In this document: positions 7,609-35,174 of the stretch, piece by piece
Numbering within the stretch: the stretch's first letter is position 1
Layout of the letters: each line of letters opens with the position of its first letter
From: Candidatus Fiminaster equi
GTDB lineage: Bacteria > Bacillota_I > Bacilli_A > RFN20 > CAG-826
Direction of reading: 5' to 3'
Length of the DNA: 47,808 nt
Assembly (NCBI GenBank): GCA_018064745.1
Contig: JAGHUR010000004.1
Span: forward strand, 1 to 47,808
Notes under the pieces: model-generated
Databases searched by the model: none
Told to the model about the DNA's origin: nothing
Seen by the model: the letters and a program-made list of their open reading frames with translations, nothing else
Position numbers and translations under genes: made by a program

Positions 7609-7660
7609 AACTCTGACTCCTTCACGTTTAATACGTTCACATTATACATACGCGTTTATG

Positions 7661-7854: not shown

Positions 7855-7874
7855 TTTTTAGTAGTTTTGTAAGA

Positions 7875-8723: not shown

Positions 8724-8750
8724 AATTTTAAGTTTCCTTTCGTTACGCTA

Positions 8751-9599
8751 TTATTTTAATTCTGGGGTGATATCAAGGTATTTGCTTGTATCAGGCGCTT
8801 TTACTGAAACATCTTTCTTAGAAATAACAGCATGATTTAATGAGTGTTCTTCTTCTCTGCTTGTTTCATATGAATCGACACAATCATATTTCCAGAAATA
8901 TTCAAAGGAATCACCATTAAGAACGATTTGATAAACATATTTGCTTGTAGAAGAATATTTCATTTCTTCATCAACATCTTTGTCTTCAATGACAAAGGTA
9001 TAAGCATCACCATCGATGTAGAATTTTGTTTTTTCTTCATCGGCATGTGCTGCTTGATTAGTAACTGATTGAATCATGTATTCAATTTGATAATATACGC
9101 CTTGGAATAATTCTTTCTCTGCGTTTTCTTTTGGAGCTTCGTTCTTATAGATGGTTTTATCTAAATCATCAATTTGAACAAAGAAACCTGAATCAAGCTT
9201 CATGAAGGTATGATCTTTTTCAACACTTTCAGATTTTTCTTCATCAGATTTTTTAACTGTCTTTTCTTCATAAACTTGTTCACCAACTTTGTTAGCTACA
9301 TCGTACTTAAGTGATGATTCATCTTTGCTTTCGCTTGTGCTCTTACTATATTCCTTACCATTTTTTAATGATACCTTAAGTCCACTTTGTGAGCCCTCGC
9401 CTTCACAAACAAATGAAAACGGTTCCTTGCCTTCATCGAAAGCATGGAAAAGGATGTTGTCTTTTACGCTTTCTTCAAATTTTGCTAAGAAATCAACTTT
9501 CTTAACTTCGTTTTTGTAGGCATTTGGTTCTTTAACACCACCACAGCTTGCTAATGCTGCTGCAGATAAGCCTAATAAAAATAAACTTTTAATTTTCAT
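8751..9599 (-). CDS. Lipoprotein (paralog 2 of tandem pair)
   Basis: 282 aa with MKIKSLFLLGLSAAALASCGG. It shares blocks with paralog 1: VKEPNAYKNEVKK, KLDSGFF, EEKTKFYID, KKDVSVK.PD.SKYLDITPE. Confidence 0.85.
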   Translation of the reverse strand: MKIKSLFLLGLSAAALASCGGVKEPNAYKNEVKKVDFLAKFEESVKDNILFHAFDEGKEPFSFVCEGEGSQSGLKVSLKNGKEYSKSTSESKDESSLKYDVANKVGEQVYEEKTVKKSDEEKSESVEKDHTFMKLDSGFFVQIDDLDKTIYKNEAPKENAEKELFQGVYYQIEYMIQSVTNQAAHADEEKTKFYIDGDAYTFVIEDKDVDEEMKYSSTSKYVYQIVLNGDSFEYFWKYDCVDSYETSREEEHSLNHAVISKKDVSVKAPDTSKYLDITPELK

Positions 9600-9669
9600 A
9601 ATTTCAAGTTTCCTTTCGTTGTGCTGTTATTTTATAAAATGGTTTTATTTACTGTCAAACAAAATATAC

Positions 9670-9704
9670 AAAAAACCAGATTTGAACGGAATTTTTTAAT
9701 CTGG
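9670..9704 (-). terminator. Terminator of the Big_2 adhesin gene
   Basis: Stem CCAGATT / AATCTGG followed by U6. The sequence is related to the terminator at 7821-7854. Confidence 0.7.
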
Positions 9705-9722
9705 TTTTAAGTTTCTAATTTT

Positions 9723-12700: not shown

Positions 12701-14711
12701 CATAAGTTCCACTTTCATATAAATCAACGTAGTTGTTTCCAGTAAATGCATACCATTGTTCTTCATGAGTAGCAAGTGAACGAACGCCTTTTTTCTTTGT
12801 CTCCGTTGCAATTTTGTATCCATTTGATGCGCTATAAGTTACAACCCAAACATTGACTGGTGTATCGGTTAATTCAATTTCTGAAATATTCTTTCCATCA
12901 GCATAAACATCTTCAGAGAAAGAAAGGTATTTTTCATTTGCAATTAAATAGTAAGAGTTATCACCAGCATAGGCTTTTTCAAAATGCCAAATGTTAGCAG
13001 GATCAAAATCAACATCAGTAATATAACTTAAATCACCACCAAGCATAGCGCCGCCAGTAGTAATGTAATAATTATCCTTATCTAAAATGTTGTACTTATA
13101 GTCATGTACGTTTACAACAGCTTTAGCTTTAACGCCATCCACTGTAACTGTAACTTCTGCTTCACCTTCTAAAAGGGCTGTTACTTCAACTTCACTAGTA
13201 CCTTGTCCATTTGTTATTGAAACAATATCAGAACCTGATGTAACTTCCCAAGAGTATGTTGTTGGTTCAAATCCAATGCATTCACTTACTGCAATAATGC
13301 CTTTAAAACCAACATTCAAATCTAATTCATTAGTACTTAAGTGAACTTCTTTAGCATGCCCACTCTTTGCCCACATTTCTACTGGGCTCATTGAGGTAGA
13401 AGAATAGTTAGAAAATCTACCAACGCCACTACCATTATAGAAAATAGAATGGTTCACACCTTCAACAGATGATGTAACCTTAACATTGCCGTCATTGAAT
13501 GTGATAGTCCATCTATTTGCTTTTGACTTTTCTTTAAATGCAAGTTTGTTACTACTATTAGCAGTTAATGTTAAATATGAACTGCCTGACTTAATTAACC
13601 AGTTAGAACCTTCTTTTTCTAAAGAAAGAGGAACGATTTTATCGTTATCATAGGTTAATTCATCATCAATTATTTTAGCGTCGTATGCTTTAAAGTAATC
13701 TCCACCTTCAAGTCCACCATTAGCTTTAACTGTGGAACCTGAGTGGAATACAAATAAGAATGAAGAAACTGAATCTAAATCACTTACACTAGTAATTTTT
13801 GTAAAAGTATCACCTACAGGAATGTATTCATCATCCCAGATTGCAAATAATTCTGTATTCTTTAGAATTGTGAATTTGTCATCAGGAGCGTATGAATCGC
13901 CAGTTCCATCTGTTTTTGTATTCCATTCTTTGAATACTTTACCCACTGGTTTATCAAAACCATTTGCTAAAACTGTTACTTCTGAACCAATATTGTATTC
14001 ATTTGAATCTGTTGTGAAACCTGTTGCTCCATTTCCGCTATATGTAACTGTAAATTTATCAACTTCACCATTTTTTGCTTTATAGATTTCTGGTAATGGC
14101 ATGCTTTCAGTAGGTTCACCTGTGTAACAGGAGAATCTTGGACTGTTCACGTTATATTTAATCTTGTAAGTGCCATTATCAATTGTTGCTGCACCACCTT
14201 CTGCAATAGAAATGGTCCAGGTATCTTTTTTGTCTTTAGATAATTTTCCTGATTCGCCACAGCCAATATAGCCTTCATCTTGTGTGTACAAGTTCCAACC
14301 ACCATCGGTAGCAAGCAATGTAATAACATCTGGGTTGGTTGGTGTTAATTCTCCATCTCCAAATGTACCTTGTGTTGCTGTAAAGTATTGATATGAGCCA
14401 AATGCTCCAGCGACCGTTTCTTTTGCAACATTACCCAAGACAATCTTGTCACCTGTATTTAATTCTGAGACACTCTCAACCAATTTATAATCTCCTTCGA
14501 ATGGAGGTAATGGTTGATCGCTTTCTTTTGTAAAAGTAATATTTAAAGTTTTAATTTGACTTGTGCTACCGCCAGACATAATTTTTAAGTATTTATATCC
14601 TTGAGTTTGCGTATATGTTGAACTGAAGTCTCCAACAGAAACACCAGATGATGCAGTAATTGTTGAAGTAGCACTAAGTCCTAAATTACAAGCGTTGCTT
14701 GCAACTTTCAT
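9723..14711 (-). CDS. Large adhesin with Big_2 (Ig-like group 2) repeats, one Flg_new module and a C-terminal TM anchor; lacks its own signal peptide (see 14708-15040)
   Basis: 1662-aa ORF. It has five or more Big_2-type units (e.g. VTWSSSNPSVATVDSNGHVAGVSNGQAVITVKT) and one Flg_new unit (FTVTYSGNGATG...FKEWNTKTDGTG...LFAIW). The C-terminus is IIIIASVGGGVVVAGVGCGVGIPLAI followed by KAKKRKLLK. Confidence 0.85.
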   Translation of the reverse strand: MKVASNACNLGLSATSTITASSGVSVGDFSSTYTQTQGYKYLKIMSGGSTSQIKTLNITFTKESDQPLPPFEGDYKLVESVSELNTGDKIVLGNVAKETVAGAFGSYQYFTATQGTFGDGELTPTNPDVITLLATDGGWNLYTQDEGYIGCGESGKLSKDKKDTWTISIAEGGAATIDNGTYKIKYNVNSPRFSCYTGEPTESMPLPEIYKAKNGEVDKFTVTYSGNGATGFTTDSNEYNIGSEVTVLANGFDKPVGKVFKEWNTKTDGTGDSYAPDDKFTILKNTELFAIWDDEYIPVGDTFTKITSVSDLDSVSSFLFVFHSGSTVKANGGLEGGDYFKAYDAKIIDDELTYDNDKIVPLSLEKEGSNWLIKSGSSYLTLTANSSNKLAFKEKSKANRWTITFNDGNVKVTSSVEGVNHSIFYNGSGVGRFSNYSSTSMSPVEMWAKSGHAKEVHLSTNELDLNVGFKGIIAVSECIGFEPTTYSWEVTSGSDIVSITNGQGTSEVEVTALLEGEAEVTVTVDGVKAKAVVNVHDYKYNILDKDNYYITTGGAMLGGDLSYITDVDFDPANIWHFEKAYAGDNSYYLIANEKYLSFSEDVYADGKNISEIELTDTPVNVWVVTYSASNGYKIATETKKKGVRSLATHEEQWYAFTGNNYVDLYESGTYDHYAVEALPTTKQYFVGDTLKPLNAHVYAYYTNGFKVEITDRISWETLTAGTKAYGTCTILGEEIDIEMDGLKIYKGDASTFVISGLADTFSIGERINKDNLTVGITYKLSGSEDIIKDKLLNDDYTITPEKIVEGTEKVRIALAKDPTVYYEKEIEIKDNPYVAAAHIHAGDTIILGTLGYTPYEITGGQEVSYDGSKFGYSTFDYMPHGELPLEVGEQGSYFTLKDPVTGYYLKGDNSSLGFNQPDYKSVYAEADGHYEFNLNVTIGGASRLITMKTGLNPDFDDPMVFSSMTYVDGYTDYVVGTSQLDENKFTFEMWSEKNNYEEVYDTAEVTIADWKFEGGAFYYALEISSTLPEECLFTMSYDADYEEWIVSSKPHQDKQLYFNKDGKFGFYTRGSSYTPVMVFRDNDKPLASNPTSVSVSFTPIDGSETGEVMNTVTVGEQFPWTSALIVKVNYAGGASKIIPVGGYTLKQEPDTSVIGTSTGIISYGQNGHQTDKEFTIYVKGKTQAFDVVCPDPIRVGETLQAHLADHYEPPEGEPVTWSVSDPTLASIDQNGNVTGLKAGYVDVIATSFDGTYSDFEHVRIFQNVTDLSLDKTNITMEAGSTETIAATVLPADASNPGVTWDSSNRNVATVNSQGVVIGLSEGTTTITCTTQGKPFGADEPLTATCTVKVEGGTAVRVKGVSLNCEYKEVKRGDTYQLEAIINPSDATDKNVTWTTNNSDLASVSKNGLVQIKASAGIGKTARITVKTNDGGFTAYCDFKITSGGSDPVHVTSVSLNIANKSIDVNESFDLIATVNPSDADNKSVTWSSSNPSVATVDSNGHVAGVSNGQAVITVKTVDGNKTATCTVKVGNVPEPIHVESISLNKDNLELDIGEVYKDLEVTINPENATNKAVTWSSSDTKVVTVKNGVITAVAPGKATITVKSVDGGKTATVQVEVVDKAAQNRENIIIIASVGGGVVVAGVGCGVGIPLAIKAKKRKLLK

Positions 14712-15040
14712 TGAAATAGAAGAAATATAATATCCTTCAAAAGTGGTTGTTGACCAAAAACCGTTGCTGTTCCGCTTTTAATTTGGAGATATTCAGAACC
14801 AGAACTTCCTTGATAACAAATGTTTTTAGAGTCAAAACTTAAATTATCAATAGTGAATTTGTAATTATTATTAGACTGTCCTAAGACGCTTTTAACTTTA
14901 GAACTAGTAAATTTGACAGCTATAGTTTCAGCATCCTCAGCCTTAACCCCTGCTGCTTCAAATGCTGCAGGTGCTGCGGCAAGACCCAAAACTCCACCAA
15001 GTAATAGAAATGGTAAGATTCTTAATAGTTTACGTTTCAT
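14708..15040 (-). CDS. Signal-peptide-bearing N-terminal fragment of the same adhesin (separated by a frameshift)
   Basis: 110 aa starting MKRKLLRILPFLLLGGVLGLAAAPAAFEA. Its TGA overlaps the ATG of the 1662-aa ORF. The downstream frame stays open back to 14790, so the two ORFs overlap in different frames around an A5 tract (14756-14760). Confidence 0.7.
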   Translation of the reverse strand: MKRKLLRILPFLLLGGVLGLAAAPAAFEAAGVKAEDAETIAVKFTSSKVKSVLGQSNNNYKFTIDNLSFDSKNICYQGSSGSEYLQIKSGTATVFGQQPLLKDIIFLLFQ

Positions 15041-15053
15041 TTTGATACCTCAG

Positions 15054-15094
15054 AAAAAAATGTGGTTAATCCCTTAAAAGGTCGATTAATCACA
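15054..15094 (-). promoter_or_regulatory. Terminator-like hairpin plus U7 inside the 5' leader of the adhesin gene
   Basis: Minus-strand RNA is UGUGAUUAAUC-N13-GAUUAACCACA (10 of 11 bp paired) followed by UUUUUUU. The SD GAGG and the ATG follow directly. Confidence 0.5.
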
Positions 15095-15118
15095 TATCAA
15101 ATTTTTCATAACGCTTAT

Positions 15119-15147
15119 ATTATACGTGCATACACGATTTATTGCAA
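15119..15147 (-). promoter_or_regulatory. Sigma-A-like promoter of the adhesin gene
   Basis: On the minus strand: -35 TTGCAA (15142-15147), 17-nt spacer, -10 TATAAT (15119-15124). Confidence 0.55.
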
Positions 15148-15537
15148 ATCATACGGTGAACTACTCGGCATTGAATTACCGAGCATCGACTCAAGCATAC
15201 TTTGTAGCATGTTGATATCAGGGCAGTCCCTGCCCATTATCCCTACTTCTTTCTTAGTAGAATTTGAAATTACAGGAATACTTATTTTCTTTGGATTTGA
15301 TAAGCACTTATAAGTTAATTTTTTGTTAATATTGTTCTCTTGATAATACTTTCTTAGAATGTTAAATGTTCCAACAGAATCTGCGTTGTAAATAGCGTTC
15401 CCATCTTGATATAGGCCACGATATATGCGTTTGTTTTTGCCCGCGTATTCTGAAGAAATTTCAAAAGAAGTTGGAGAACATTGACTTGTAAATGCTTCAT
15501 TTGTGCTTGTTTTAAAAATAAAACTTATTTTCTTAGA
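15139..15537 (-). pseudogene. C-terminal remnant of an IS200/IS605-family TnpB-like (RuvC-III region) gene
   Basis: The frame is open only from a TAA. It reads KISFIFKTSTNEAFTSQCSPTSFEISSEYAGKNKRIYRGLYQDGNAIYNADSVGTFNILRKYY.... The E-A-(F/Y)-T-S-Q and N-A-D-x-x-G/A-x-x-N-I-L blocks are typical of TnpB C-termini. There is no N-terminal part and no start codon. Confidence 0.5.
15156..15183. repeat. Hairpin element copy 1 (GTGAACTA-CTCGG-N10-CCGAG)
   Basis: gtgaactactcggcattgaattaccgag, located in the 3' tail of the TnpB remnant. Confidence 0.7.
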
Positions 15538-15581
15538 AAATAATATTTGTTCATATACTCAATTTTGGGGCTCGCTTTCAT

Positions 15582-15623
15582 CTCGGCAATTGAATAACCG
15601 AGGATTCCCGCTCGTTTCCTAAA
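15582..15623. repeat. Hairpin element copy 2
   Basis: ctcggcaattgaataaccgaggattcccgctcgtttcctaaa, about 85% identical to copy 3. Confidence 0.7.
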
Positions 15624-15679
15624 AGAAATTGTCTCAATGCTTTATAACGAAATCAAAAACCCATAACATAATTAAGTTT

Positions 15680-17011
15680 TTAGAACCCGTACCAGAAATC
15701 AAGATCGTATGCACCAATGGTTCTTCCATAAATAATATTTGTTCTATCTTCTTGATCATCATCGTATAAATCAAATTTTAGCTCTTTATATTCAAATGTT
15801 GCATTTTTAGTGTAGTAATTGTCTCCATCATCATATGACTTATCAATTTCACTCACGATTAAGCCGTTTTCATTGCAAACATAATCACATACAACGAAGT
15901 AACCATGCTCAATATCAGAATCAACAGGACTTGCTGATTCAACATGCTTCAATGATCTATCTTCATTATACTCGATAGTAACCTTTGTATCTTCATACCA
16001 TTCGCCTGTATCAGAATCATACTCTGATGTAATATTAGAAATCATATCTCCGTACTCGTTGTATTCAAAAATATCATATGCGGACCAATCAGAGTAAAGT
16101 CTTTCGATAAGTTTTCCGGTGTCGAAGGTATAAATTTCATAACCTGTATATTCTTCTTCTGAAGAAAGATACGACTCAACATAATCAACTCTTTTTGTGT
16201 TATGTTCTATATCAATTGCCACTTTTTTTATAGTTGTAAAACAATCTTCTAAATATTCTTCAGTCTCATCATCATAATATTCGAAATACCTCTTACAAAT
16301 GCATGTAAAATTATCAGGGTATTCAAATGTTGTAAGATTGTAGGCTTCCTCGCCCCACATTAATACAGATTTTGTAATTCTATTATATTGATCGTATTCA
16401 CGTTGTTCGAAATTCTTAGTACCATCTTCATCGTCAGGAAAATCTACTCTTACAATATTACCGTTTTCATATGTGTAATTTATAAAGTTAGATTCAACAT
16501 CACCTTCATTATATTTTTCTACTTCCTTAAAGCTTGTAAGGCGTCCGTTTTCATAAGAATATGTACGTACATCAACAGTTTCATAATACCAGGTTGAAAC
16601 CAGCTCTTTTCCATCTTCTGATAATTCGCTACTTGAATGAATTACTTCATCATTATATTCGGCGCTTAAATAATATTTAGGTTTTTCAAAAGAAGCACAA
16701 TAGATTGTTGTGTCTTCATTAATTGTAAATTTTAAAGTTCCATCATATTTATTGTAGGAATAAGATCCACCATAAACATAAACTTCTAAAGGATAGGCAT
16801 ATCCTTCATTTGGTGTTATTTGGATGTTTACTTCTTGCCCTTCATTATAACTAGCTTGAGCATTCGAAGTACATTTAACACCATTAAATGATACATTGTA
16901 TGTTGTTACTGGCTCTGGTGTATCAGGTTGATCATTATTTTTAGAATCACAACCTGTTAGGAAGATCGAGAAACCACAAACTGCTAACAAACCATATTTT
17001 AATTTTTTCAT
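15680..17011 (-). CDS. Acidic lipoprotein with YD/RHS-like short repeats
   Basis: 443 aa with lipobox FSIFLTGCDS. The N-terminal module resembles Flg_new (YNVSFNGVKC...EGYAYP). It then has many Y-x-Y-(D/E)-x-x-G-x-(L/I) style beta-hairpin repeats and a high D/E/Y content. Confidence 0.8.
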   Translation of the reverse strand: MKKLKYGLLAVCGFSIFLTGCDSKNNDQPDTPEPVTTYNVSFNGVKCTSNAQASYNEGQEVNIQITPNEGYAYPLEVYVYGGSYSYNKYDGTLKFTINEDTTIYCASFEKPKYYLSAEYNDEVIHSSSELSEDGKELVSTWYYETVDVRTYSYENGRLTSFKEVEKYNEGDVESNFINYTYENGNIVRVDFPDDEDGTKNFEQREYDQYNRITKSVLMWGEEAYNLTTFEYPDNFTCICKRYFEYYDDETEEYLEDCFTTIKKVAIDIEHNTKRVDYVESYLSSEEEYTGYEIYTFDTGKLIERLYSDWSAYDIFEYNEYGDMISNITSEYDSDTGEWYEDTKVTIEYNEDRSLKHVESASPVDSDIEHGYFVVCDYVCNENGLIVSEIDKSYDDGDNYYTKNATFEYKELKFDLYDDDQEDRTNIIYGRTIGAYDLDFWYGF

Positions 17012-17255
17012 AATGTTTCGTGTTATTCAGTTAAGCCTAGTTTGATGACTGAATGACTTTCTCCTTTCTAGGCTATAATGTATATGCTGTGTACCTGTCT
17101 CATAATTTTGCCACTAGATGGCTTAGGGGATTTTCAGGACACGGGTTTTTAATAACATCATTAATAAGTTAAGTAACGCTAACGTTTTATCATTCGCGAT
17201 TATACGAGAGTAAAAAGTCCATGCATTAACAGCAACTCAATAAAGAGGCGATTAT

Positions 17256-17378
17256 ATGCTTTATATTGGAATCGACATTTCCAAATACAAGCATGATTGC
17301 ATCGTTATCAATGATGCGAGTGTTATTGTTAGAAATGTGTTTTCTTTCAATAACAATCCTCTTTTTAAAATGCTATAG
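17256..17378 (+). pseudogene. N-terminal stub of an IS110-family transposase
   Basis: An SD (aaagagg) precedes an ORF reading MLYIGIDISKYKHDCIVINDASVIVRNVFSFNNNPLFKML*. The (V/I)GID(V/I)SK start is the IS110 DEDD-transposase signature. The ORF ends after 40 codons. Confidence 0.5.
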
Positions 17379-17602
17379 AAGGAATTGTAAAAACTACAAT
17401 TGAACCCTTCTCTTTTTATATCGTTTTTTTACAGTATTGGGTGAAACCCACTACTTTTCAACGATATGCTTAAATTTTACCCATTTTTTAATAAAAAATC
17501 AATTGTCTTGTTTTTATTTCCAAATCGTTTACAGGTAATGCCAAAATTATATTGATATGGACATTTACGAATAGTAAACTAAAAAGCAATTAGGAGTATG
17601 CT

Positions 17603-18400
17603 ATGAAAAATTATAAATCTTTAGTTAAATTTATGGCCGTTGGAGCCGCTGCAACGTTGCTATTAACTTCTTGTTCAACGGAAGATAACATAAACAAACA
17701 TTTTAATGACATCGACTCAAATATTAGTAATGTCATTGTAAAAGTCGATGCCAACGAAAGTGCATTAGAAGAACAAAATGAAATTCTTAGCGACATCAAA
17801 GCTACAATTGAAAGTCATGAAAAATCATTTGAGGAAGTCAAAAATGAACAGATCGGTCTTCTTTTAAGACACTATTTTGATTCTTTCGCTAGACTACCAG
17901 AAGCAGCATCGTATCTTAATAGTGCCAAAGATAAATTACTTTTAGCAATGAATGATGTTTCAACAATTGGAAAAGCTTTAGCCTTAGGCACTATTGGCGG
18001 ATCCAATTCGGGCGTTGAATCTATGTATAGTGGAATCGCAGGATCAGGAATTTTTGATGCCATTGGTAGACAACCTGAACTTTCAGAGACAATGATTTCC
18101 TTTGAAATGTATACAATAGAAAAAATTAAAAATACACCTAATGATTTATATTGCGAAATGATTGGTTTATCAGCATCCTCACTATTTGATGGAATAGGAA
18201 GATCACCAAGTATTGCGGATAAATTTGTGAATTATGGAAAATATATTATGGACGCATTAACAAATGTTAAAGAAGAGGAAAGCTCAATTTCAATTGGATA
18301 TTCTTCTGTCGGTTTCTTTGATGGAATTGCACGTCAAACAGAAGCAGCGGACGATATGTGGTCTATCTACAAAGACTTTATTGATTCACTAGTCAAATAA
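17603..18400 (+). CDS. Lipoprotein with three internal F-D-G-I-A-R-Q-x-E repeats
   Basis: 265 aa, SD aggag, lipobox LLLTSCST. It is one of only two plus-strand genes in the window. Confidence 0.8.
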   Translation: MKNYKSLVKFMAVGAAATLLLTSCSTEDNINKHFNDIDSNISNVIVKVDANESALEEQNEILSDIKATIESHEKSFEEVKNEQIGLLLRHYFDSFARLPEAASYLNSAKDKLLLAMNDVSTIGKALALGTIGGSNSGVESMYSGIAGSGIFDAIGRQPELSETMISFEMYTIEKIKNTPNDLYCEMIGLSASSLFDGIGRSPSIADKFVNYGKYIMDALTNVKEEESSISIGYSSVGFFDGIARQTEAADDMWSIYKDFIDSLVK

Positions 18401-18418
18401 TATTTAATGTTGAATAAT

Positions 18419-18472
18419 AAAAAGTTCTGCCTAACATTGCTTAACTCGCAATAATCGCAGAACTTTTTTATT
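18419..18472 (+). terminator. Rho-independent (probably bidirectional) terminator
   Basis: Stem aaaagttctgc (18420-18430) / gcagaactttt (18457-18467), followed by tttatt. Confidence 0.75.
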
Positions 18473-18531
18473 TAAACATCGTATTTTTTACAATGTGCTT
18501 AAGTAATATATCGCACTAGTTATCTATAGAT

Positions 18532-18581
18532 GTGAACTACTCGGCAATTAAATAACCGAGAATTTCCACTCATTTCCTAAA
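18532..18581. repeat. Hairpin element copy 3
   Basis: gtgaactactcggcaattaaataaccgagaatttccactcatttcctaaa. It contains the TAG stop (18577-18579) of the 898-aa gene. Confidence 0.7.
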
Positions 18582-21273
18582 CAGCAATTGTCCAAACAAA
18601 TAAGGTATGGTCTTTAATCTCTTTGGCAGCATTTTCACAATCTTCAAGTTTCGAAGGTTGAATAATTGTTATTCCAACAATCCACCTGTGATGTTTTGCT
18701 TGGCCAAAATCAAACCATTCAAGATTACTACAGCCCTGAAATGCACCTACACCAATAGTATGGAAGGAAGTGCTTTCGTCATTTTCGCCTTCGATGATAA
18801 ACGAATTTAAAAGAGAGCAGCCCATGAATGCGTTTGTATTAATACAACCTAAGCTAATCTTATCATTTGTTTTAACAACATTAACCGTTCTTAAGTTTGT
18901 GCACAAAGTGAAAGCATTAGTGCCGATTTTTATAACATGGCCATTTAAAACAACATGCATTAAATTGGTTTTGTTTACAAATGCAGAATCACCAATAATT
19001 ACTTCACAATCATCATTGCTTTTTATTTGCTCTTGGATAATGAAACGAGAAGCAAAATTTCCTAATTTGGAAGAAGAAAGAATTGTTTGGCTAGTAAGAA
19101 CGTTATCTTGTGATAAGGTGTAACTAAAGTTAAACAATCCATATGATAAATATTCTTCACCTCTAATTAAATTAACTTTTGAAGATGTTGCTTCTTGTAA
19201 ATTTTCGTTTTGATTATCGTAACGAACATTTATTTTAGACATATCTTCATTTTTATCATTTCTAATAGCGAATCCAGCAGTATTTTTAATACTATCATCA
19301 GTTCCATTATGTTTTAACAAAACAGGTGAAAGTATGGTGACATTTGATAAAGTGATGTAGTTATTTGCTTCAACAACCAAATCTTTGCCTTCTTTACCAA
19401 TTGTTACATTCTCAACTGATGGATCAGCAAAAATGCTAATCGATTTATTGAATGTTAAACATGTTATATGTCTATTTTGAGCTGGTGTTCCCTCTGTGAC
19501 ATTTATCCAACCTTGATCAGCACAGTTAAAAATTGCAACATCGATATTATCAGTAAAAGAAACATCTATATATCTGCCTGTAGAATCTGTTTTTGTGGTT
19601 TTTGTAAAAGCTATATGACCAACGCTTTCTCTTACCCATTTTACATCTGAATATTCATGAGCAAGGCAGAATGCAACGTATTCAGGATCAAATTGATTAG
19701 GTAAAAATGTTCTTCTAACAGAATGTAGTTTAGGTCCTTGAGTCCATCCTAATGGAGGTAAATAAACTTCCATCAATGAATTGCATGAATCGAATGCGTA
19801 TTTTTCAATTGTGGTTAAAGAGTATGCTTCTGAAAAATCAACATATCTTAAGGACATGTCTTCATGGAAGGCATATTGAGAAATTCTAGTTAATCCTCTA
19901 CCACCACTTACCTCTTCTAAAGATCCTTGATATTCGAAAGCGGATTCGTCAAGAGCAGTTACGCTATCGCCAATCTCTAAAGATCTAATATGAGAAAGTA
20001 AAATGCTAATTTGCAATTTAACTTCGTAGAAAATATCGTCAGTTGTTTCATTTGTAAATGCATGAGATCCAACCCCAATAATTCCATCACAAAGATGAAG
20101 GGAAGTAAAAATGCCCTTTGTTTGGTATAAAGTAATATGAGTATCTTTAATCTTATCTATATTAATCTTAATATCGGTGTAAACAGAGAAACCATACGGG
20201 GCCACTGTAGCATTAATTCCTTTTACAACATTAGTGATATACAAATCACTAACTGCTTGTCCGTAATAAGTTAATCCTTTAATGTATTTATAATCTTTTG
20301 AGAATGTAAATGTGCCATATGCGTAATGGGTAACAGGAAGAACTAATACAGAATTAACAACTTGTTTACTTCCAACCGCCTCACGACCAAAACCTGTTTC
20401 TTGTTCAAAATTATCAACGTATTCAACATAAACGTTTTCAGGTTTAACATCTGTATTAACAAAGGCAATTGTTCCAGAGCTATAAACATTTTCCCAATCT
20501 TCGCCAATTTCTTCACGCGTATTAGCAAGCATTAATTTAACGTTGCTTGTTAAATCAATTGATGAAGGAACATTTAAAATTCCACCTGAATTAATGTTAA
20601 AATCACAATTCAATTTAACATGATTATGATATGTCTCTAAAGTAACAATGTGATTAATTACAGGAGCTTTTGTTAATGTTAAATCATCTTTAAGAATAGT
20701 AATTGTTGTCTCATCTGTTGCTACAGCATCAAATGCTTCATTTAAAGTTTTATATAAAACGTCGTCAATTTTTGCATCATATTCAGTTAAAATATCGTGC
20801 TTGTAGCAAATACCATCTACAAGCTCCCAAGCAACTTCTTCTTCTGCTGTTTTAACAATTAAGTTTGGTTTATCAAAGGCACCTTCATAATAACCAACGA
20901 ATTCTTTGCTAAGATTTAAAAGTAAAACATTAGAGTCTACTAAAGCGTCTTTTGCAACATAAAGAACTGTAGATGGGAGATCGATGATAGCCTTAGTTTT
21001 TCCGTGTTCAGTTAAACCAGTCATCACGCCATTTTCATCAATAACAACAATTGGATCCTCATAATCACAAAGAATACATTTATCTGTTACATCTAGAATT
21101 TTGTGTTCACCAACCATAAACTTTTCGCCACATGAAGTACAAGTTTTCCAATGCTCGGTTTCATTATGTTCAAAAGGAGCTTCGAATGTGTGAATATGCA
21201 ATTGTTTACAACCAGAAAGTAAGCTAATTGACATAATCACGCCAATAAAAGGTAAAATTGTTTTTCTTTTCAT
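18577..21273 (-). CDS. BspA-type leucine-rich-repeat lipoprotein (paralog B)
   Basis: 898 aa with lipobox SLLSGCKQ and an N-terminal His/Cys cluster (HIHTF...HWKTCTSCGEKF...HK...CILCDYE). LRR_5-type units are present (IGDSAFVNKTNLMHVVL, IGTNAFTLCTNLRTVNV, IGVGAFQGCSNLEWFDF). It aligns with the 915-aa ORF along most of its length. Confidence 0.85.
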   Translation of the reverse strand: MKRKTILPFIGVIMSISLLSGCKQLHIHTFEAPFEHNETEHWKTCTSCGEKFMVGEHKILDVTDKCILCDYEDPIVVIDENGVMTGLTEHGKTKAIIDLPSTVLYVAKDALVDSNVLLLNLSKEFVGYYEGAFDKPNLIVKTAEEEVAWELVDGICYKHDILTEYDAKIDDVLYKTLNEAFDAVATDETTITILKDDLTLTKAPVINHIVTLETYHNHVKLNCDFNINSGGILNVPSSIDLTSNVKLMLANTREEIGEDWENVYSSGTIAFVNTDVKPENVYVEYVDNFEQETGFGREAVGSKQVVNSVLVLPVTHYAYGTFTFSKDYKYIKGLTYYGQAVSDLYITNVVKGINATVAPYGFSVYTDIKINIDKIKDTHITLYQTKGIFTSLHLCDGIIGVGSHAFTNETTDDIFYEVKLQISILLSHIRSLEIGDSVTALDESAFEYQGSLEEVSGGRGLTRISQYAFHEDMSLRYVDFSEAYSLTTIEKYAFDSCNSLMEVYLPPLGWTQGPKLHSVRRTFLPNQFDPEYVAFCLAHEYSDVKWVRESVGHIAFTKTTKTDSTGRYIDVSFTDNIDVAIFNCADQGWINVTEGTPAQNRHITCLTFNKSISIFADPSVENVTIGKEGKDLVVEANNYITLSNVTILSPVLLKHNGTDDSIKNTAGFAIRNDKNEDMSKINVRYDNQNENLQEATSSKVNLIRGEEYLSYGLFNFSYTLSQDNVLTSQTILSSSKLGNFASRFIIQEQIKSNDDCEVIIGDSAFVNKTNLMHVVLNGHVIKIGTNAFTLCTNLRTVNVVKTNDKISLGCINTNAFMGCSLLNSFIIEGENDESTSFHTIGVGAFQGCSNLEWFDFGQAKHHRWIVGITIIQPSKLEDCENAAKEIKDHTLFVWTIAV

Positions 21274-29840: not shown

Positions 29841-29916
29841 TGGTAGCTGAGGACGGATTTGAACCGCCGACACGCCGGGTATGAGCCGACTGCTCTAACC
29901 AACTGAGCTACTCAGC
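29841..29916 (-). tRNA. tRNA-Met (CAU), canonical, CCA encoded
   Basis: Reverse complement GCTGAGTAGCTCAGTTGGTTAGAGCAGTCGGCTCATACCCGGCGTGTCGGCGGTTCAAATCCGTCCTCAGCTACCA, with anticodon loop CTCATAC. An Ile2 (lysidine) identity cannot be excluded by eye. Confidence 0.88.
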
Positions 29917-29922
29917 CATAAA

Positions 29923-29998
29923 TGGTGGATCTGAAGAGGATCGAACTCTCTACCTCCTGAATGCAAATCAGGCGCTCTCCCAGATGAGCTACAGACCC
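29923..29998 (-). tRNA. tRNA-Ala (UGC), CCA encoded
   Basis: Reverse complement GGGTCTGTAGCTCATCTGGGAGAGCGCCTGATTTGCATTCAGGAGGTAGAGAGTTCGATCCTCTTCAGATCCACCA. The G3:U70 identity pair is present and the anticodon loop is TTTGCAT. Confidence 0.93.
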
Positions 29999-30080: not shown

Positions 30081-30506
30081 TCAGCTTATTTTCATTGCCT
30101 CATATAGTGTGTGAAATTCTTTCGGAGAATAAATAACACTTTTTGCTTTGGTGAAATGTTTTGAATTTCTAGTAATTAAACCATCGCAGCAATAAAGTTT
30201 TGCACTATCATCAATTGAGGCATCCTCTATATCAGTGAAATCACTTTTAAAACCATTTAACAAATTAAATTTATCATAAGGTACAACAACAAAAAGTTCG
30301 CAAATAATTGAGCATATTTCTAGTGCTATTTTTTTATCTAGCATTTTTGATGCTACATAATAAATATCACTTAATTGTTTAGCATTGATATAACCCTTTA
30401 TAAGATTATGTTCAACTAACCTATAACAATAAATGGAAAATTCACTTTCTTTATCCCTATTAGAAAAAACATCAATTAATATATTTGTATCAAAAAAGAG
30501 TTTCAT
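30081..30506 (-). CDS. PIN-domain toxin (VapC-like)
   Basis: 141 aa beginning MKLFFDTNILIDVF, the first PIN acidic motif. Further conserved acidic residues are present. Its ATG overlaps the antitoxin stop (TAATG). Confidence 0.82.
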   Translation of the reverse strand: MKLFFDTNILIDVFSNRDKESEFSIYCYRLVEHNLIKGYINAKQLSDIYYVASKMLDKKIALEICSIICELFVVVPYDKFNLLNGFKSDFTDIEDASIDDSAKLYCCDGLITRNSKHFTKAKSVIYSPKEFHTLYEAMKIS

Positions 30507-30715
30507 TATTTATAGCGATCCTTCCATGCATCAAAAGGAACATTGTCTGGTAAACAACCAATTAATGATTCTGCTCTTCTAATAATGGAGTCTCTTGGAG
30601 GGTTGATTTCAAAAATTACCTTTCCGTGGCTTGTTACTTTAATTGTTTCTTTTTGGGCTAACTTAGCGTACTTTCCAAAGTTGGTTTTAAATTCGGTTGC
30701 TGTTATAGTGCACAT
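30506..30715 (-). CDS. Type II antitoxin (Phd/YefM-like)
   Basis: I prefer the ATG at 30715 (MCTITATEFKTNFGKYAKLAQKETIKVTSHGKVIFEI...), which is preceded by the SD aaaggtgg. The GTG at 30781 in the ORF track adds 22 poorly supported residues. Confidence 0.7.
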   Translation of the reverse strand: MCTITATEFKTNFGKYAKLAQKETIKVTSHGKVIFEINPPRDSIIRRAESLIGCLPDNVPFDAWKDRYK

Positions 30716-30746
30716 AGTGAATCCACCTTTCGCACTATTAATTATA

Positions 30747-30779
30747 AAGAAAATATGCGAATTGCTCAACACAAATCGC
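30747..30779 (-). terminator. Probable terminator of the riboswitch-1 operon
   Basis: Minus-strand GCGATTTG-N7-CAATTCGC (7 of 8 bp paired) followed by ATATTTTCTTT, 36 nt after the stop at 30815. Confidence 0.45.
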
Positions 30780-30814
30780 ACATTTTTCTAAGATACATTA
30801 CTCCACCTTAAACG

Positions 30815-33800
30815 TCAGGGCGAGTAATGATATTCATTAACTTCAAGGTTATGACCTTCACCATCGTCCAGCTTCACATTATTAACGTAAACACTGTAAT
30901 TATCAATTTCATAATTAAATATGTTAATTGTTATTGCAGCACTTGCAGAGAATGTAATGTAGTAAATACTATCATTCTTATTAAAATACACTTTAATTGA
31001 GTAATTTAATTCTGCCGGTGCATCAAAATAGAAGTTAAGAATTGTATCTGTGATTGTATCATTAGCATCTCTATAGCCAACTGGACCGAAAGAACCGCCA
31101 GAACCTTCATGGGCTTTATATGAGAACTTAACATCAGTAATGTATGTTCCGTTAGTTGAAGATCTTGAGGATGAACCTAAAACAATAACATAGGTAGCAA
31201 TGTTGCTAACTCTGTCTTTATTAAGTACATAGGAACCACTTGGATCCTTTTCATATGTACCATATGGATTTTGATCATATTGAGTTGTTCCTGGATTATA
31301 AGTAACGTGTCTATATCTTTCTTCTGCTGGCTCAGTTGTTGCAGCTTTAAAGAAACCATAACCTGGGTTACCGTTTAAATCATAAATACCAAGCATTCTG
31401 CCTTGTCTATCTAAGCATACATAGGATGTTTTTCTTGCACCACTTTCGGTGATATCACCATCAAATGTAGAGACAAAGTTAACATATTGTTCGCCTTCTT
31501 CGATTCTACCTAAAGTTTCAACGTTAACAAAGTTACCATTGCCTTTCTTGAAGGATGGACGAGTAACATTAATTAAGGTTCTACCTTGAATATTCATGTT
31601 AGCGTATGTAAACTCAACGTGGCCAAGTTGACTATCAATATTATCAAGACCGTTACCAGAGTTATTGACATACATAACAATTGAACCTGGGCAGTACTTA
31701 GTTGCATAGAATTGACTCATTGCGTCAAGGTCAGACATTTCTGGAAGTTCAACAATGTTTGTATTTTGAGTTTCAGGTGGAAGCGTGATAACTTCAAGGT
31801 TTACTGGTATGAATAAAATTGTACCAAGATAATAGAAGGTAACATTACCACCAACAATATCGATATTCTTAAACTTATAATTATTATCAATCAACGATTG
31901 AGCATCAGAAAGGTATACTGGATCTTTAGAATAGTCAGGAGATCTTGTTGGATTATCGGCTGCTATCCAAACTTTCCTTGAGACTTCATGAGGATTGCCT
32001 TGATCATCATATTCAATATCAGTCACTGTTTCTCTAGTAAAACTTTCAATTGATGATTCTTTTAACAATGCAGTTGAACCATCAGAACGTTTTGTGCCAG
32101 TTAAAGTTATTTCATAGGAATTTGGGTTAACGTATTGTGGTACTTTTCCATCCCATTTATTTGAATCGATCTCAATAGTTGGACTTTGATCAGCAACCGT
32201 ACAGTTTCCACCATCATATTTTGCACCAGCAAAAGACATTGTTCCTCTAATATAATCATCAACATCAAATACAAACGTACCTTGTCTAACAGTCCAGTTT
32301 TTTCTATTTGCTCCACTCATAGTCACTGATGTACCGGAACTTGTTTGATTACTACCATCAATGCCTTTTGTTTTAGCATTATCTGCAATATAGGCAAATC
32401 TCATAGCATTGTTCTTTGTAGCAAAAGCTAAGAAGAAGGCATAATAATGGGTTCCACGTTGTAATTTATGAGTAAATGATGTTTTAGTTAAAGAAATGTT
32501 ATACAGCCTATATTTGTAGTTAAATACCGATCCGGTACGTTGAATGCTATTATTAACAGGTTCATCATAAACTTTTACGCCATCAATATAGAAATATGCT
32601 CTGGCACTATACATAGAAGGGCTACTATCACCGCCAGATTCGCCGACAGAGAATTCGCTAATAGTGCTTAAATTAAATGTAATATCTTTTTCAGCAACAT
32701 AGCTTGTACTATCGTTTTCAGAATGTTGATAATACCATTGTTGTCCACTTGAATCATATCTAAAGAAATCACCAGTAGCAGATTGATTTGCTAAAGCAGG
32801 TGCATTTTTATTTGTTGTTACATTATCAGGATTACTCCATCTTGAATCAGTTGAAGATACTTCGAATTCACTACGAATACCACCAGTTAATGGTTGATAA
32901 CCAACAGTTGAAAGCGAATAGGTTCTATCAGCATATTCTTGTGTGGTTGTACCATTTAAACGATATGTGTTGCCATTGACACGTGTAATAGCCTCACTAA
33001 CTGGATGTGATGCCTCATTGTTTGCCCAATCTGGTTCACCTTCAATTGGGAAATCATAATCGGTATAATGTCTTCCCATATCATCAGAATCTAGACCAAC
33101 ACGAGCTCTTAATGGGTTATCACGAACATTTGCATAGTCTTCATTAATAGCGTCATAAATTTTTTTAGCACTTAAATCAAATGAATAGTTATCACCAGCA
33201 TGTCTTTGACCACCCGTATGGTCGTATTCAACCTTACCATAGTAGCCATATGTATCCACTGTTCTATCTTTTGCGGTTTTACCATCAATAGTACAGTTAT
33301 TAACGTAAACGTTATTTATATCGGTAGCACGAACAACGTGGCCCGCAATATAGCCAACGTGTGCATTTTCAGAGTGAACTCTAGTTTCTGGTGATCCGTG
33401 CGCATCAGTAGCGGTTGCACCTTTAGTGTTAACTTTAAAATCACTAAAGTAGGCATTATCAATCTTTGCGCCTACGCCTTCACTAGTTTCACCAACGAAA
33501 CCAAAAATACCAATATCGTGATGTCCACTACCATCGATTTCAAAATTTGTGATAGTTAAATTATTACCATTTAAGTTTCCAATGAAAGGTTTTTCTTCGT
33601 TGCCAATTGGTTCAAAGACATCACCACCAAGGTTTAATGTAGTAGCGTTTGTAACATCAAAATCAACAGCACCATTTTCATCAGTGCCATAAAAATATCT
33701 AGTTGTGCCACCATTTAAAGGATAACCAAATTCAAAATAGTATCCAGCTTCAGCAAAACCATCCATAGAATAGTGAAGCTTTGCAAAGTTTTCATAGTGC

Positions 33801-34003
33801 CATGGAGTGGTAATTGTAAATGGGTCTGCTTGTGTACCAGTTCCAGAATGGAAATAACCACGTAAAACGGCACCACCTAGGATATCAACAACACCAATTG
33901 AGTTTCTACCACCGAACCAAGCAACGGTTGCTAAAGATAAACCTGATACAAGAAGACCAAGAGTAGAAGCAAATAATACGATTTTCTTCTTACTTATTTT
34001 CAT
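30815..34003 (-). CDS. 1062-aa secreted adhesin-like protein with SipW/TasA-type N-terminal signal and probable beta-helix start
   Basis: The N-terminus is MKISKKKIVLFASTLGLLVSGLSLATVAWFGGRNSIG. It is followed by GTGTQADPFTITTPWHYENF, the usual opening of right-handed beta-helix adhesins. Its ATG overlaps the upstream stop (ATGA). Confidence 0.8.
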   Translation of the reverse strand: MKISKKKIVLFASTLGLLVSGLSLATVAWFGGRNSIGVVDILGGAVLRGYFHSGTGTQADPFTITTPWHYENFAKLHYSMDGFAEAGYYFEFGYPLNGGTTRYFYGTDENGAVDFDVTNATTLNLGGDVFEPIGNEEKPFIGNLNGNNLTITNFEIDGSGHHDIGIFGFVGETSEGVGAKIDNAYFSDFKVNTKGATATDAHGSPETRVHSENAHVGYIAGHVVRATDINNVYVNNCTIDGKTAKDRTVDTYGYYGKVEYDHTGGQRHAGDNYSFDLSAKKIYDAINEDYANVRDNPLRARVGLDSDDMGRHYTDYDFPIEGEPDWANNEASHPVSEAITRVNGNTYRLNGTTTQEYADRTYSLSTVGYQPLTGGIRSEFEVSSTDSRWSNPDNVTTNKNAPALANQSATGDFFRYDSSGQQWYYQHSENDSTSYVAEKDITFNLSTISEFSVGESGGDSSPSMYSARAYFYIDGVKVYDEPVNNSIQRTGSVFNYKYRLYNISLTKTSFTHKLQRGTHYYAFFLAFATKNNAMRFAYIADNAKTKGIDGSNQTSSGTSVTMSGANRKNWTVRQGTFVFDVDDYIRGTMSFAGAKYDGGNCTVADQSPTIEIDSNKWDGKVPQYVNPNSYEITLTGTKRSDGSTALLKESSIESFTRETVTDIEYDDQGNPHEVSRKVWIAADNPTRSPDYSKDPVYLSDAQSLIDNNYKFKNIDIVGGNVTFYYLGTILFIPVNLEVITLPPETQNTNIVELPEMSDLDAMSQFYATKYCPGSIVMYVNNSGNGLDNIDSQLGHVEFTYANMNIQGRTLINVTRPSFKKGNGNFVNVETLGRIEEGEQYVNFVSTFDGDITESGARKTSYVCLDRQGRMLGIYDLNGNPGYGFFKAATTEPAEERYRHVTYNPGTTQYDQNPYGTYEKDPSGSYVLNKDRVSNIATYVIVLGSSSRSSTNGTYITDVKFSYKAHEGSGGSFGPVGYRDANDTITDTILNFYFDAPAELNYSIKVYFNKNDSIYYITFSASAAITINIFNYEIDNYSVYVNNVKLDDGEGHNLEVNEYHYSP

Positions 34004-34899
34004 TCTACAATACCCTCAGATGAAACAGTAATCTTTTGAATATCCTTTTGGAAGGCAATTCTACTAGACATCATTCCAATATCTTGTGCACCAACAATTT
34101 CGGTGTTATTTAAGAAAGAATCAACTAAATCGGTGTTATAGTTATATTCAACGTATAAGACAACACTACTTGCTCTAGAATCTACTTGTTCTAGGTCAAA
34201 TTGTAATTTATTGTTCTTTGAACCACTTGAAACAAATGTTGCTTCTGATGTTCTTTCAATGAACTCATTAGTAGCATCTCTATATGTAGTAGCTGGAGTT
34301 GATTCATCAATTACAATTGAATCGTCATAAAGATGTGTTACGCCATCCAAAACATATGAATAAACGAAACCTTTAAAATAAATAATGTTTGAAATATTGT
34401 TACAAATATAATTTTGATCTTTTGAAGCATTGTGATACTTGTAACCTTGTTCATCAATAAAAGTTCTTGAAACACTGTCAGTGAATCCACCATAAAAGTT
34501 ATCTCCAATAGTTGTTGGATTCAATAAAGAAGAGACTCTAAGATTTCTTAAACCTTCAGAAGTTGAAGGGTGTGGTAAAGCAACATTAAAACGAATAATA
34601 TTGTTGTTATTAACGTTTCTTTCACGAATAAAGTTATCGAAGTCATTTAATTGAAGATTGAATTCTGTAGTGCCTTCAACAAATTCAACGCCTTCCTTCT
34701 TATCGAAGTCATATTTATAAAGCTTAAAGTTAATATCAATTAAGTTTGTATCAACTTCAACTCTCATATCCATTCCTGTTGCTGTTGTTTTTTTATTTGC
34801 TGAGAACCATGCAAAAGAAGATACGGCTAAACCAATCAGAGTCGAGAAGAATCCGATTGAGATAACTGTTGATACAATTTTTGCTTTAAGTGATTTCAT
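34000..34899 (-). CDS. 299-aa protein with SipW-cognate (TasA/camelysin-type) signal peptide
   Basis: The N-terminus is MKSLKAKIVSTVISIGFFSTLIGLAVSSFAWFSANKKTTATGMDMRV. The AWFSANK.TTATGM block is shared with the 255-aa protein at 45129-45896. Confidence 0.78.
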   Translation of the reverse strand: MKSLKAKIVSTVISIGFFSTLIGLAVSSFAWFSANKKTTATGMDMRVEVDTNLIDINFKLYKYDFDKKEGVEFVEGTTEFNLQLNDFDNFIRERNVNNNNIIRFNVALPHPSTSEGLRNLRVSSLLNPTTIGDNFYGGFTDSVSRTFIDEQGYKYHNASKDQNYICNNISNIIYFKGFVYSYVLDGVTHLYDDSIVIDESTPATTYRDATNEFIERTSEATFVSSGSKNNKLQFDLEQVDSRASSVVLYVEYNYNTDLVDSFLNNTEIVGAQDIGMMSSRIAFQKDIQKITVSSEGIVE

Positions 34900-34910
34900 G
34901 ATAATAAATT

Positions 34911-34940
34911 AAAAAGCCAACTGCATTTTAGGCAGCTGGC
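34911..34940 (-). terminator. Expression-platform terminator of riboswitch 1
   Basis: RNA is GCCAGCUGC-CUAAAAU-GCAGUUGGC followed by UUUUU. The 5' arm is the conserved 3' end of the aptamer. Confidence 0.7.
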
Positions 34941-34995
34941 TATCTCATCGAGACCCTATAGTTTTGCGTCCCTACATTACTGTAGGTTTGCTTTT
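34931..34995 (-). promoter_or_regulatory. GEMM-I (c-di-GMP-I) riboswitch aptamer, copy 1
   Basis: Minus-strand RNA is AAAAGCAAACCUACAGUAAUGUAGGGACGCAAAACUAUAGGGUCUCGAUGAGAUAGCCAGCUGCC. This matches the GEMM-I layout: GCAAAnC, a hairpin with a GNRA-like loop, (G)GACGCAAA(G/A)C, a second hairpin, then AGCC..G.UGC. Confidence 0.85.
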
Positions 34996-35005
34996 AACTG
35001 TCTAT

Positions 35006-35034
35006 ATAATACACACATACGTAAAATAATGCAA
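35006..35034 (-). promoter_or_regulatory. Sigma-A-like promoter driving riboswitch 1
   Basis: -35 TTGCAT (35029-35034), 17-nt spacer, -10 TATTAT (35006-35011). The predicted start lies a few nt before the aptamer. Confidence 0.6.
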
Positions 35035-35142
35035 ACATTTATTTTATAAATAGGTGCTAAAAAACTCTTTAGTGCCCATACGTATCGAGTAAACGCGCAA
35101 AATAAAAAATAATCAAAATTTCTTATTTCTTGCTAAAGCTAG

Positions 35143-35174
35143 AAAAAAGGACCACCGATTATAGGTTGTGGTCC
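35143..35174 (-). terminator. Terminator of the riboswitch-2 operon
   Basis: GGACCAC-N12-GTGGTCC followed by UUUUUU. The 5' arm lies within the last codons of the EAL gene. Confidence 0.8.

Follow-up and report, generated by a model that had tools for sequence, protein, structure and literature searches.

Identification of a class-I c-di-GMP riboswitch

The 47,808-nucleotide (nt) stretch of contig JAGHUR010000004.1 from Candidatus Fiminaster equi (referred to, at its full length, as the window) carries on its minus strand an RNA element, RS1, upstream of two genes that encode proteins of 299 and 1062 amino acids (aa). We consider it likely that RS1 is a transcriptional ON riboswitch of the cyclic di-GMP-I (c-di-GMP-I, or GEMM-I) class, that it controls this operon from a promoter of its own, and that c-di-GMP is its most likely ligand. 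A sequence-only reading of the region had proposed a GEMM-I aptamer and named the RF01051 covariance model as a check; run as cmscan against Rfam 15, this model bears out the identity, with 59.1 bits (gathering score 35; E = 3.9e-9) and a complete match to model positions 1-87. The RNA strings quoted in that reading were found letter for letter on the minus strand, and its interval (34911-35034) takes in everything between the promoter-like -35 region and the final U of the U-tract. Read along the minus strand from 35034 to 34897, the region consists of promoter-like boxes, GCAAACCUACAGUAAUGUAGGGACGCAAAACUAUAGGGUCUCGAUGAGAUAGCCAGCUGCC, UAAAAU, GCAGUUGGC, UUUUU, a 16-nt A/U-rich spacer and an AUG. 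The features on which the argument rests are as follows:

35006..35035, minus strand: putative promoter, TTTGCA-18 nt-TATTAT (consensus scan, 9/12 matches)
34928..35002, minus strand: c-di-GMP-I (GEMM-I, RF01051) aptamer of RS1 (cmscan against Rfam 15)
34992, minus strand: equivalent of position 20 of the riboswitch Vc2, A instead of G (consensus aGGCAAA against AAGCAAA, cmscan)
34966..34991, minus strand: first aptamer hairpin, GC...GC closing pairs and a CCUACA/UGUAGG stem (cmscan alignment)
34934..34963, minus strand: second aptamer hairpin, 5′ strand AACUAUAGGGUCUC and 3′ strand GAGAUAGCCAGCU (cmscan alignment)
34932, minus strand: equivalent of Vc2 C92, last base of the terminator 5′ arm (conserved UGCC aligned by cmscan)
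34911..34941, minus strand: intrinsic terminator with U-run (terminator scan, hairpin energy, pair probabilities)
Parts of the terminator, minus strand: 5′ arm AGCCAGCUGC, 34941-34932; loop CUAAAAU, 34931-34925; 3′ arm GCAGUUGGCU, 34924-34915; U-run, 34915-34911
34900..34914, minus strand: spacer of A, U and one C, with no Shine-Dalgarno sequence (read from the sequence)
34000..34899, minus strand: first regulated gene, 299 aa (open reading frame (ORF) list)
30815..34003, minus strand: second regulated gene, 1062 aa (ORF list)

Scanning the whole window with Rfam 15 returned three RF01051 aptamers (RS1, RS2 and RS3), every one on the minus strand. An element on the plus strand was rejected: Rfam gave hits on the minus strand exclusively, and what looks like a terminator on the other strand (34971-34986) is the first aptamer hairpin of RS1 in complement. 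The whole RS1 leader folds at -32.2 kcal/mol (z = -3.95), and none of 200 shuffled sequences folds as well. The sequence and its pairing are thus real and go beyond a chance pattern. RS1 is a genuine but ordinary class-I c-di-GMP riboswitch that leaves knowledge of the class unchanged; what it adds is a well-supported control point, probably responsive to c-di-GMP, in an uncultured gut lineage of Bacilli.

Ligand-contact positions in the RS1 aptamer

The numbering of Vc2 (Vibrio cholerae tfoY) was transferred to RS1 through the cmscan alignment (numbering as in PMC6140456 and PMC11705072). The first hairpin ends in a GUAA loop of the GNRA type (34980-34977), contains the equivalent of C44 (C34968) and is followed directly by the equivalent of the intercalating A47 (A34965). 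At the base of the second hairpin lies an A x C mismatch (34962/34935), which is present in 11 of 13 orthologs. This hairpin also holds G34940, the equivalent of G83, which forms the inter-helix pair with C44. In Vc2, C92 makes a Watson-Crick pair with the second guanine of the ligand; the roles of A47, C92 and the C44-G83 pair in the class-I aptamer are taken from the same two papers (PMC6140456, PMC11705072). The ligand-contact and junction positions are retained in RS1: GACGCAAA and AGCC...UGCC are conserved, as are A34965, C34932, and C34968 with G34940. Position 20 is canonically a G, the Hoogsteen partner of the first guanine of the ligand; recognition of this ligand base by G20 or A20 is taken from PMC6140456 and PMC6456294. 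RS1 has A34992 there instead, a frequent natural variant that does not exclude membership of the class. All 9 other orthologs that cover this position have A as well.

Where the model has an 11-nt tetraloop receptor (CUAAG...UAUG), the cmscan alignment shows a deletion in RS1. For GYRA loops, the usual docking partner is two G-C pairs within a plain helix (PMC7913685), and the GG/CC pairs at 34956-34955 and 34939-34938 of the second hairpin could receive the GUAA loop. A leader helix, CAGUU/AGCUG, appears in the aptamer-only fold; as a closing or anti-aptamer helix it was set aside, being unconserved in the orthologous loci L008, L009 and L130.

The aptamer and the terminator share a strand

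Immediately downstream, the terminator scan identified AGCCAGCTGC / GCAGTTGGCT at 34941..34915, a hairpin of 10 pairs (6 of them G-C) with a 7-nt loop, followed by TTTTT. The hairpin alone has a folding energy of -15.9 kcal/mol and pair probabilities of 0.85-1.0, and the 800 bp scanned contain 2 terminator-like sites, against 0.4 expected from shuffles. The sequence-only reading had described a 9-bp terminator followed by U5; the hairpin and the U5 stand, and the stem is 10 bp long owing to an extra A-U pair (34941/34915). Its further statement that the 3′ strand of the aptamer is the 5′ arm of the terminator can be read directly from the sequence: the last ten nt of the aptamer (AGCCAGCUGC, 34941-34932) double as this arm. 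Within the shared strand lie the G83-like contact, the two C's of the candidate docking pairs, the lower end of the second hairpin and the equivalent of C92, which would pair with the ligand. In the terminator fold, C34932 pairs with G34924, and C34935 of the mismatch makes a G-C pair. Because the strand is shared, the aptamer and the terminator are mutually exclusive.

Energy calculations with a secondary-structure model place these two folds far apart. For a 90-nt transcript that ends at the U-run, the terminator fold has -30.4 kcal/mol and the aptamer fold -11.2 kcal/mol in the Rfam register, or -14.5 kcal/mol with the aptamer pairs enforced, a gap of about 16-19 kcal/mol in favor of the terminator. 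A transcript that stops at the end of the aptamer reaches -17.0 to -17.7 kcal/mol, a value that falls to -28.6 kcal/mol once the 3′ arm is added.

Conservation across orthologous loci

Relatives of the 299-aa gene were recovered at 14 loci. In all 11 with sufficient upstream DNA (L001-L004, L007-L010, L130, L132 and L133), the ortholog is immediately preceded by an RF01051 match (scores of 41.9-62.1 bits) or by the same sequence, and the 1062-aa gene always comes next after the 299-aa gene. In an alignment of 13 orthologous leaders, the 19 pairs of the aptamer are paired in 94.7% of cells, and 5 pairs have changed on both sides; the covariation score is 0.155, against 0.076 for shuffles, and is reached by none of 500 shuffles. 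Slid registers of the aptamer are only 24-38% paired. This alignment consists of close relatives and is supportive rather than independent proof. Compensatory changes affect 3 of the 6 stem pairs of the first hairpin; the proteins of the orthologs are only 37-70% identical, yet changes in the aptamer stems are compensated. The terminator hairpin is kept in 11 of the 13 leaders, with 92.7% of cells paired. In L008 a changed shared strand is matched by the 3′ arm (CCAGUUGCC/GGCGGCUGG), in L130 a C-G pair of the terminator has become U-A, and in L005 a U-A pair has become U-G.

The single genome match to the 299-aa protein is a metagenome-assembled genome from horse feces labeled 'Bacilli bacterium'. 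A 24-nt specific pattern had no match in a metagenome contig collection that evidently does not hold these contigs, as L004, from the Joint Genome Institute (JGI), carries the pattern. At L009:2662-2772 the called gene differs from the query protein under the standard code; a sequence difference or another genetic code is possible.

A model for ligand-dependent read-through

The promoter-like block upstream of RS1 keeps its spacing unchanged in orthologs L001-L007, and transcription is predicted to start near 35000-34998, about 6-8 nt before the aptamer core. As a separate observation, a -10-like hexamer is found 9-14 nt upstream of position 20 in many riboswitches of Bacilli, among the RS1 orthologs and the survey loci L023, L052, L080, L094, L116, L119 and L123; with the hexamer so placed, transcripts would start at about the aptamer core and the closing helix would have at most about 2 bp.

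In the mechanism that we propose for RS1, transcription would begin probably a few nt before the aptamer, and the two aptamer hairpins would fold while the RNA is being made. Without ligand, the far more stable terminator would oust the lower part of the second hairpin, which is weak and carries the A x C mismatch, and RNA polymerase would halt at the U-run, making termination the default. In the terminator the C of this mismatch pairs instead with a G, which appears to favor termination as the default. With ligand at the junction (A34992, A34965 and C34932), the shared strand would be locked in the aptamer; the terminator could then not nucleate, and transcription would proceed into the genes. 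Only about 20 nt of transcription lie between completion of the aptamer and the U-run, and this short decision window suggests that the switch would be under kinetic control, as modeled for the pilM riboswitch (PMC9262584), and would need fairly high ligand levels.

Because the aptamer and the terminator exclude each other, ligand binding is predicted to cause read-through, as the sequence-only reading had proposed. This ON behavior, which we infer, is supported by the mutual exclusivity, by the fold energies and by two validated precedents, Bc2 and pilM.

Comparison with characterized riboswitches

The closest precedent in a host from the Bacilli is Bc2 of Bacillus thuringiensis/B. cereus, an A-variant (A11) with a terminator before an adhesin gene, where read-through depends on c-di-GMP both in vitro and in vivo (PMC4933901). 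Like Bc2, which lies upstream of cap, encoding a collagen adhesion protein, RS1 has a class-I aptamer in which A occupies the position for reading the first ligand guanine, and an intrinsic terminator directly before the ORF; for Bc2, read-through on c-di-GMP amounts to a genetic ON response (a repression/de-repression model), and its product is a surface protein. The two differ in that a 76-nt leader precedes the Bc2 aptamer and the expression platform of Bc2 is longer, whereas RS1 appears to begin at the aptamer and its terminator loop has 7 nt. In addition, the regulated genes are unrelated, and the RS1 gene has no Shine-Dalgarno sequence.

RS1 also resembles the GEMM-Ib riboswitches pilM and Gs1761 (pgcA) of Geobacter, which have A20, act as transcriptional ON switches and form exclusive folds (PMC9262584, PMC6456294, PMC6140456). 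In pilM in particular the aptamer and the terminator are mutually exclusive (PMC9262584). Kinetic control with no pause site beyond the terminator would be a further likeness. In contrast to RS1, which lies among EAL genes in a member of the Bacilli, these switches are selective for 3′3′-cyclic GMP-AMP (cGAMP) made by a Hypr-GGDEF enzyme and belong to a deltaproteobacterial host. Cbe 1-2 of Clostridium beijerinckii (PMC6140456) is, like RS1, a natural A20 GEMM-I RNA from the Bacillota; it was studied as an aptamer alone, and its sequence and gene context are distinct. Vc2 and Cd1 (Clostridioides difficile flgB) share the fold and the contacts A47, C92 and C44-G83 with RS1 but have G20, a GAAA loop with the 11-nt receptor, and a longer closing helix. 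Both are OFF switches, and in Cd1 the aptamer and the terminator coexist (PMC9262584); Vc2 binds c-di-GMP with picomolar affinity.

We surveyed species-representative genomes with a 19-nt core pattern and obtained 124 distinct GEMM-I sequences. In 59 of them the AGCCAG strand again contains the beginning of the 5′ arm of a terminator-like hairpin, and 36, mostly from the Bacillota, have A at position 20. With the RS1 orthologs removed (L011-L129), this terminator-overlap ON design is found in 21/28 A20 sequences versus 30/85 G20 sequences (Fisher p = 3.7e-4, uncorrected for phylogeny). Tested precedents have been published for the aptamer of RS1, for its A20 and for an ON design based on competition with a terminator. 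Of interest to specialists are the specificity conferred by A20, the mixture of A20 and G20 in one gene cluster (described below) and the recurrent absence of a Shine-Dalgarno sequence after terminators of this kind.

Ligand specificity and alternative explanations

The specificity of RS1 was left open in the sequence-only reading, and rightly so, as A34992 occupies the specificity position. The precedents of Bc2 and Cbe 1-2, the neighboring EAL genes and the canonical G20 of RS2 argue that the physiological ligand of RS1 is most likely c-di-GMP. Cbe 1-2 binds c-di-GMP with a dissociation constant (Kd) of 30 nM and cGAMP with one of 463 nM, a 15-fold preference for c-di-GMP (PMC6140456). By analogy, RS1 would be expected to bind both dinucleotides with c-di-GMP preferred; A20 probably lowers its affinity and lets 3′3′-cGAMP bind in vitro too. 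Given A20, the GUAA loop and the minimal closing helix, we expect a moderate affinity; Vc2 with a GUAA loop has a Kd of 2.2 nM (PMC5888326).

Several observations weigh against RS1 being a c-di-GMP-responsive ON switch. Its A20 is the hallmark of the cGAMP-sensing GEMM-Ib RNAs, and the G20A mutant of Vc2 is bispecific, with Kd values of 53 nM (c-di-GMP) and 120 nM (cGAMP) (PMC6140456). Scans of the 48-kb window found no diguanylate cyclase. With the promoter where it is predicted, RS1 would have a closing helix (P1a in Vc2) of no more than about 2 bp, and Vc2 with a shortened P1a binds its ligand more weakly (PMC11705072). Covariation of the terminator does not rise above the control in the 13 leaders (216 of 500 shuffles reach the observed score), which we attribute to the 5′ arm being frozen by the aptamer. 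Lastly, a convincing terminator is missing from two distant orthologs: L009 keeps its aptamer (52.9 bits) without any U-run, and in L010 the hairpin before the U-run is weak, at about -8 kcal/mol.

The same ON architecture might have 3′3′-cGAMP as its natural ligand, as a GEMM-Ib-type switch, or the RNA might be truly bispecific in the cell, which would agree with the occurrence of A20 in RS1 and in every other ortholog that covers the position, as well as with the behavior of the Vc2 mutant. In Geobacter, A20 is required for cGAMP selectivity, and A20G turns a GEMM-Ib RNA to c-di-GMP (PMC6456294). Moreover, G20 (RS2) and A20 (RS1 and RS3) occur within one gene cluster, as they do in Geobacter. 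We nevertheless regard a cGAMP-specific or bispecific RS1 as unlikely: natural A20 switches from Firmicutes answer to c-di-GMP or prefer it (Bc2, PMC4933901; Cbe 1-2, PMC6140456), A20 is common among GEMM-I sequences (above), the flanking enzymes are of the EAL type and probably c-di-GMP phosphodiesterases, and domain scans of the window revealed no CD-NTase or GGDEF cyclase that could be a cGAMP synthase. RS1 could also be a non-switching attenuator, that is, a decayed aptamer next to a terminator that always wins or never forms. The 16-19 kcal/mol advantage of the terminator, the minimal closing helix and the absence of the 11-nt receptor are what such a relic might look like, but the Rfam score is far over the threshold, every ligand-contact position is kept, and stem changes are compensated across orthologs as divergent as these. 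Retained contacts and compensated stems point to purifying selection on a working aptamer, and decay is accordingly a reading to which we give next to no weight.

The start of the 299-aa gene bears on whether RS1 might act wholly or additionally on translation or RNA stability, through ribosome access or through a role of the terminated 90-nt RNA itself. The AUG is 16 nt from the hairpin and U-run and has no Shine-Dalgarno sequence; an in-frame TAA (34911-34909) rules out an earlier start codon. Nearly all other genes of these operons have AAAGGAG- or GGAGG-type sites. The missing site is conserved in the orthologs and is found in L001-L007, L131-L133, L013, L069, L119, L123, L108 and L057; among the surveyed ON-terminators with an ORF start at most 25 nt from the stem, 14 of 18 lack it too. 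Such a role would also fit with the minimum-energy fold of the full leader, in which the U-run pairs with the 5′ leader, with the aptamer that L009 retains without a terminator, and with Vc2, for which a preprint reports control over the stability of a small RNA upstream (bioRxiv 10.1101/617340). Set against this, the stem and U-run of RS1 are those of a textbook intrinsic terminator, none of the helices predicted for the terminator state includes the start codon, and there is no anti-Shine-Dalgarno element because there is no Shine-Dalgarno sequence to hide. Control of translation or stability therefore seems improbable to us, and we retain transcriptional read-through on c-di-GMP as the preferred explanation of RS1.

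The regulated genes

The two ORFs downstream of RS1 overlap by 4 nt, and the genes are therefore probably co-transcribed. The 299-aa protein has an N-terminal hydrophobic helix and a AWFSANKKTTATGM motif, matches no Pfam or NCBIfam family and has only 17 homologs among 5.8 billion sequences. Its AlphaFold model, of fair quality (predicted local distance difference test score, pLDDT, 78; predicted template modeling score, pTM, 0.75), shows the N-terminal helix followed by a beta-sandwich, for which a search of the PDB gave no fold match (best E = 0.022, TM-score about 0.2). The 1062-aa protein has a signal-like N-terminus (TVAWFGG) and no NCBIfam match. Neither it nor its 40 homologs, from the same 5.8 billion sequences, have a Pfam domain, and the few source names read 'hypothetical protein'. 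It is modeled, again with fair quality, as an all-beta multidomain protein (pLDDT 77, pTM 0.50) with no meaningful match in the PDB (TM-score at most 0.1).

The sequence-only reading had called these products a SipW-signal protein and an adhesin. For the first the evidence is mixed. The SipW signal-peptide model TIGR04088 does not match the N-terminus of either protein at E up to 10. The FAWFSANKKTTATGM motif of the 299-aa protein is nearly the same as that of a 255-aa paralog (45896..45129), AWFSANK.TATGM being common to both, and this paralog scores 19.3 against TIGR04088 with its N-terminal 64 residues alone and 16.3 as a whole protein (cut-off 19). The neighboring RS2 operon contains genes for two SipW-like peptidases (44800..43982 and 38107..37475). 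Part of the label thus has support in the paralog motif and the two peptidases, without a direct TIGR04088 match, and it is plausible that the 299-aa product is secreted via SipW processing. The name adhesin found no backing in Pfam, NCBIfam, the homolog names or the fold search. Both products are probably surface or matrix proteins made at high c-di-GMP. RS1 ties second-messenger signaling to two families without known function, and provides a first functional hint for them.

The surrounding gene cluster

The other c-di-GMP-related features of the cluster are as follows:

35159-37453, minus strand: 764-aa membrane protein whose EAL domain is intact (GAEALVRW) and whose GGDEF domain is degenerate, with GHMDNGQF replacing the GGDEF motif (domain scan)
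44866-44940, minus strand: RS2, RF01051 aptamer of 56.5 bits with G20 and a GAAA loop (Rfam scan)
47588-47662, minus strand: RS3, RF01051 aptamer of 50.4 bits, A20 variant (Rfam scan)

The gene for the 764-aa protein, which is probably a c-di-GMP phosphodiesterase judging from its domains, is the immediate upstream neighbor of RS1. A strong terminator follows this gene at about 35176-35140 (AAAGGACCAC-N11-GUGGUCCUUUUUU). RS3 has the same ON build as RS1, with CAGUUGC...GCAACUG and a U-run forming a terminator at about 47597-47556; downstream are an EAL-like 260-aa gene at the head of the operon, a 253-aa gene and the gene for the 255-aa SipW-signal protein. No U-run terminator was found for RS2 in the leader down to 44800, and control of translation is suggested by a CCUCUC...GGAGA pairing close to the ribosome-binding site. 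The RS2 operon encodes the two SipW-like peptidases, proteins of 513 and 1417 aa and, in its last gene, the 764-aa probable EAL phosphodiesterase, an arrangement that would form a negative feedback loop.

One could go further and see in RS1 a sub-type of class-I cyclic-dinucleotide riboswitch from uncultured gut Bacilli, defined by A20, almost no closing helix owing to a transcript that begins at the aptamer, a very compact ON terminator and, right behind the U-run, a start codon without a Shine-Dalgarno sequence, with the A20 and G20 aptamers of the 17-kb cluster reading two dinucleotides or two c-di-GMP thresholds. This proposal strikes us as rather unlikely; if true, it would mean staged production, in which signal peptidases and phosphodiesterase are made first and the uncharacterized SipW-processed family of surface proteins afterwards.

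Elsewhere in the window, 2965-21273 (minus strand) encodes large surface-type proteins, including one of 1547 aa with Listeria-Bacteroides repeats, one of 1662 aa with Big_2 immunoglobulin-like repeats and one of 898 aa with BspA-type leucine-rich repeats; no further Rfam riboswitch hit precedes these genes. After the riboswitch operon, at 30081-30781 (minus strand), come genes for a Phd/YefM-like antitoxin and a PIN-domain toxin, which occupy the same position in L003 and L005. Next after this toxin-antitoxin pair are two tRNA genes (29844-29998).

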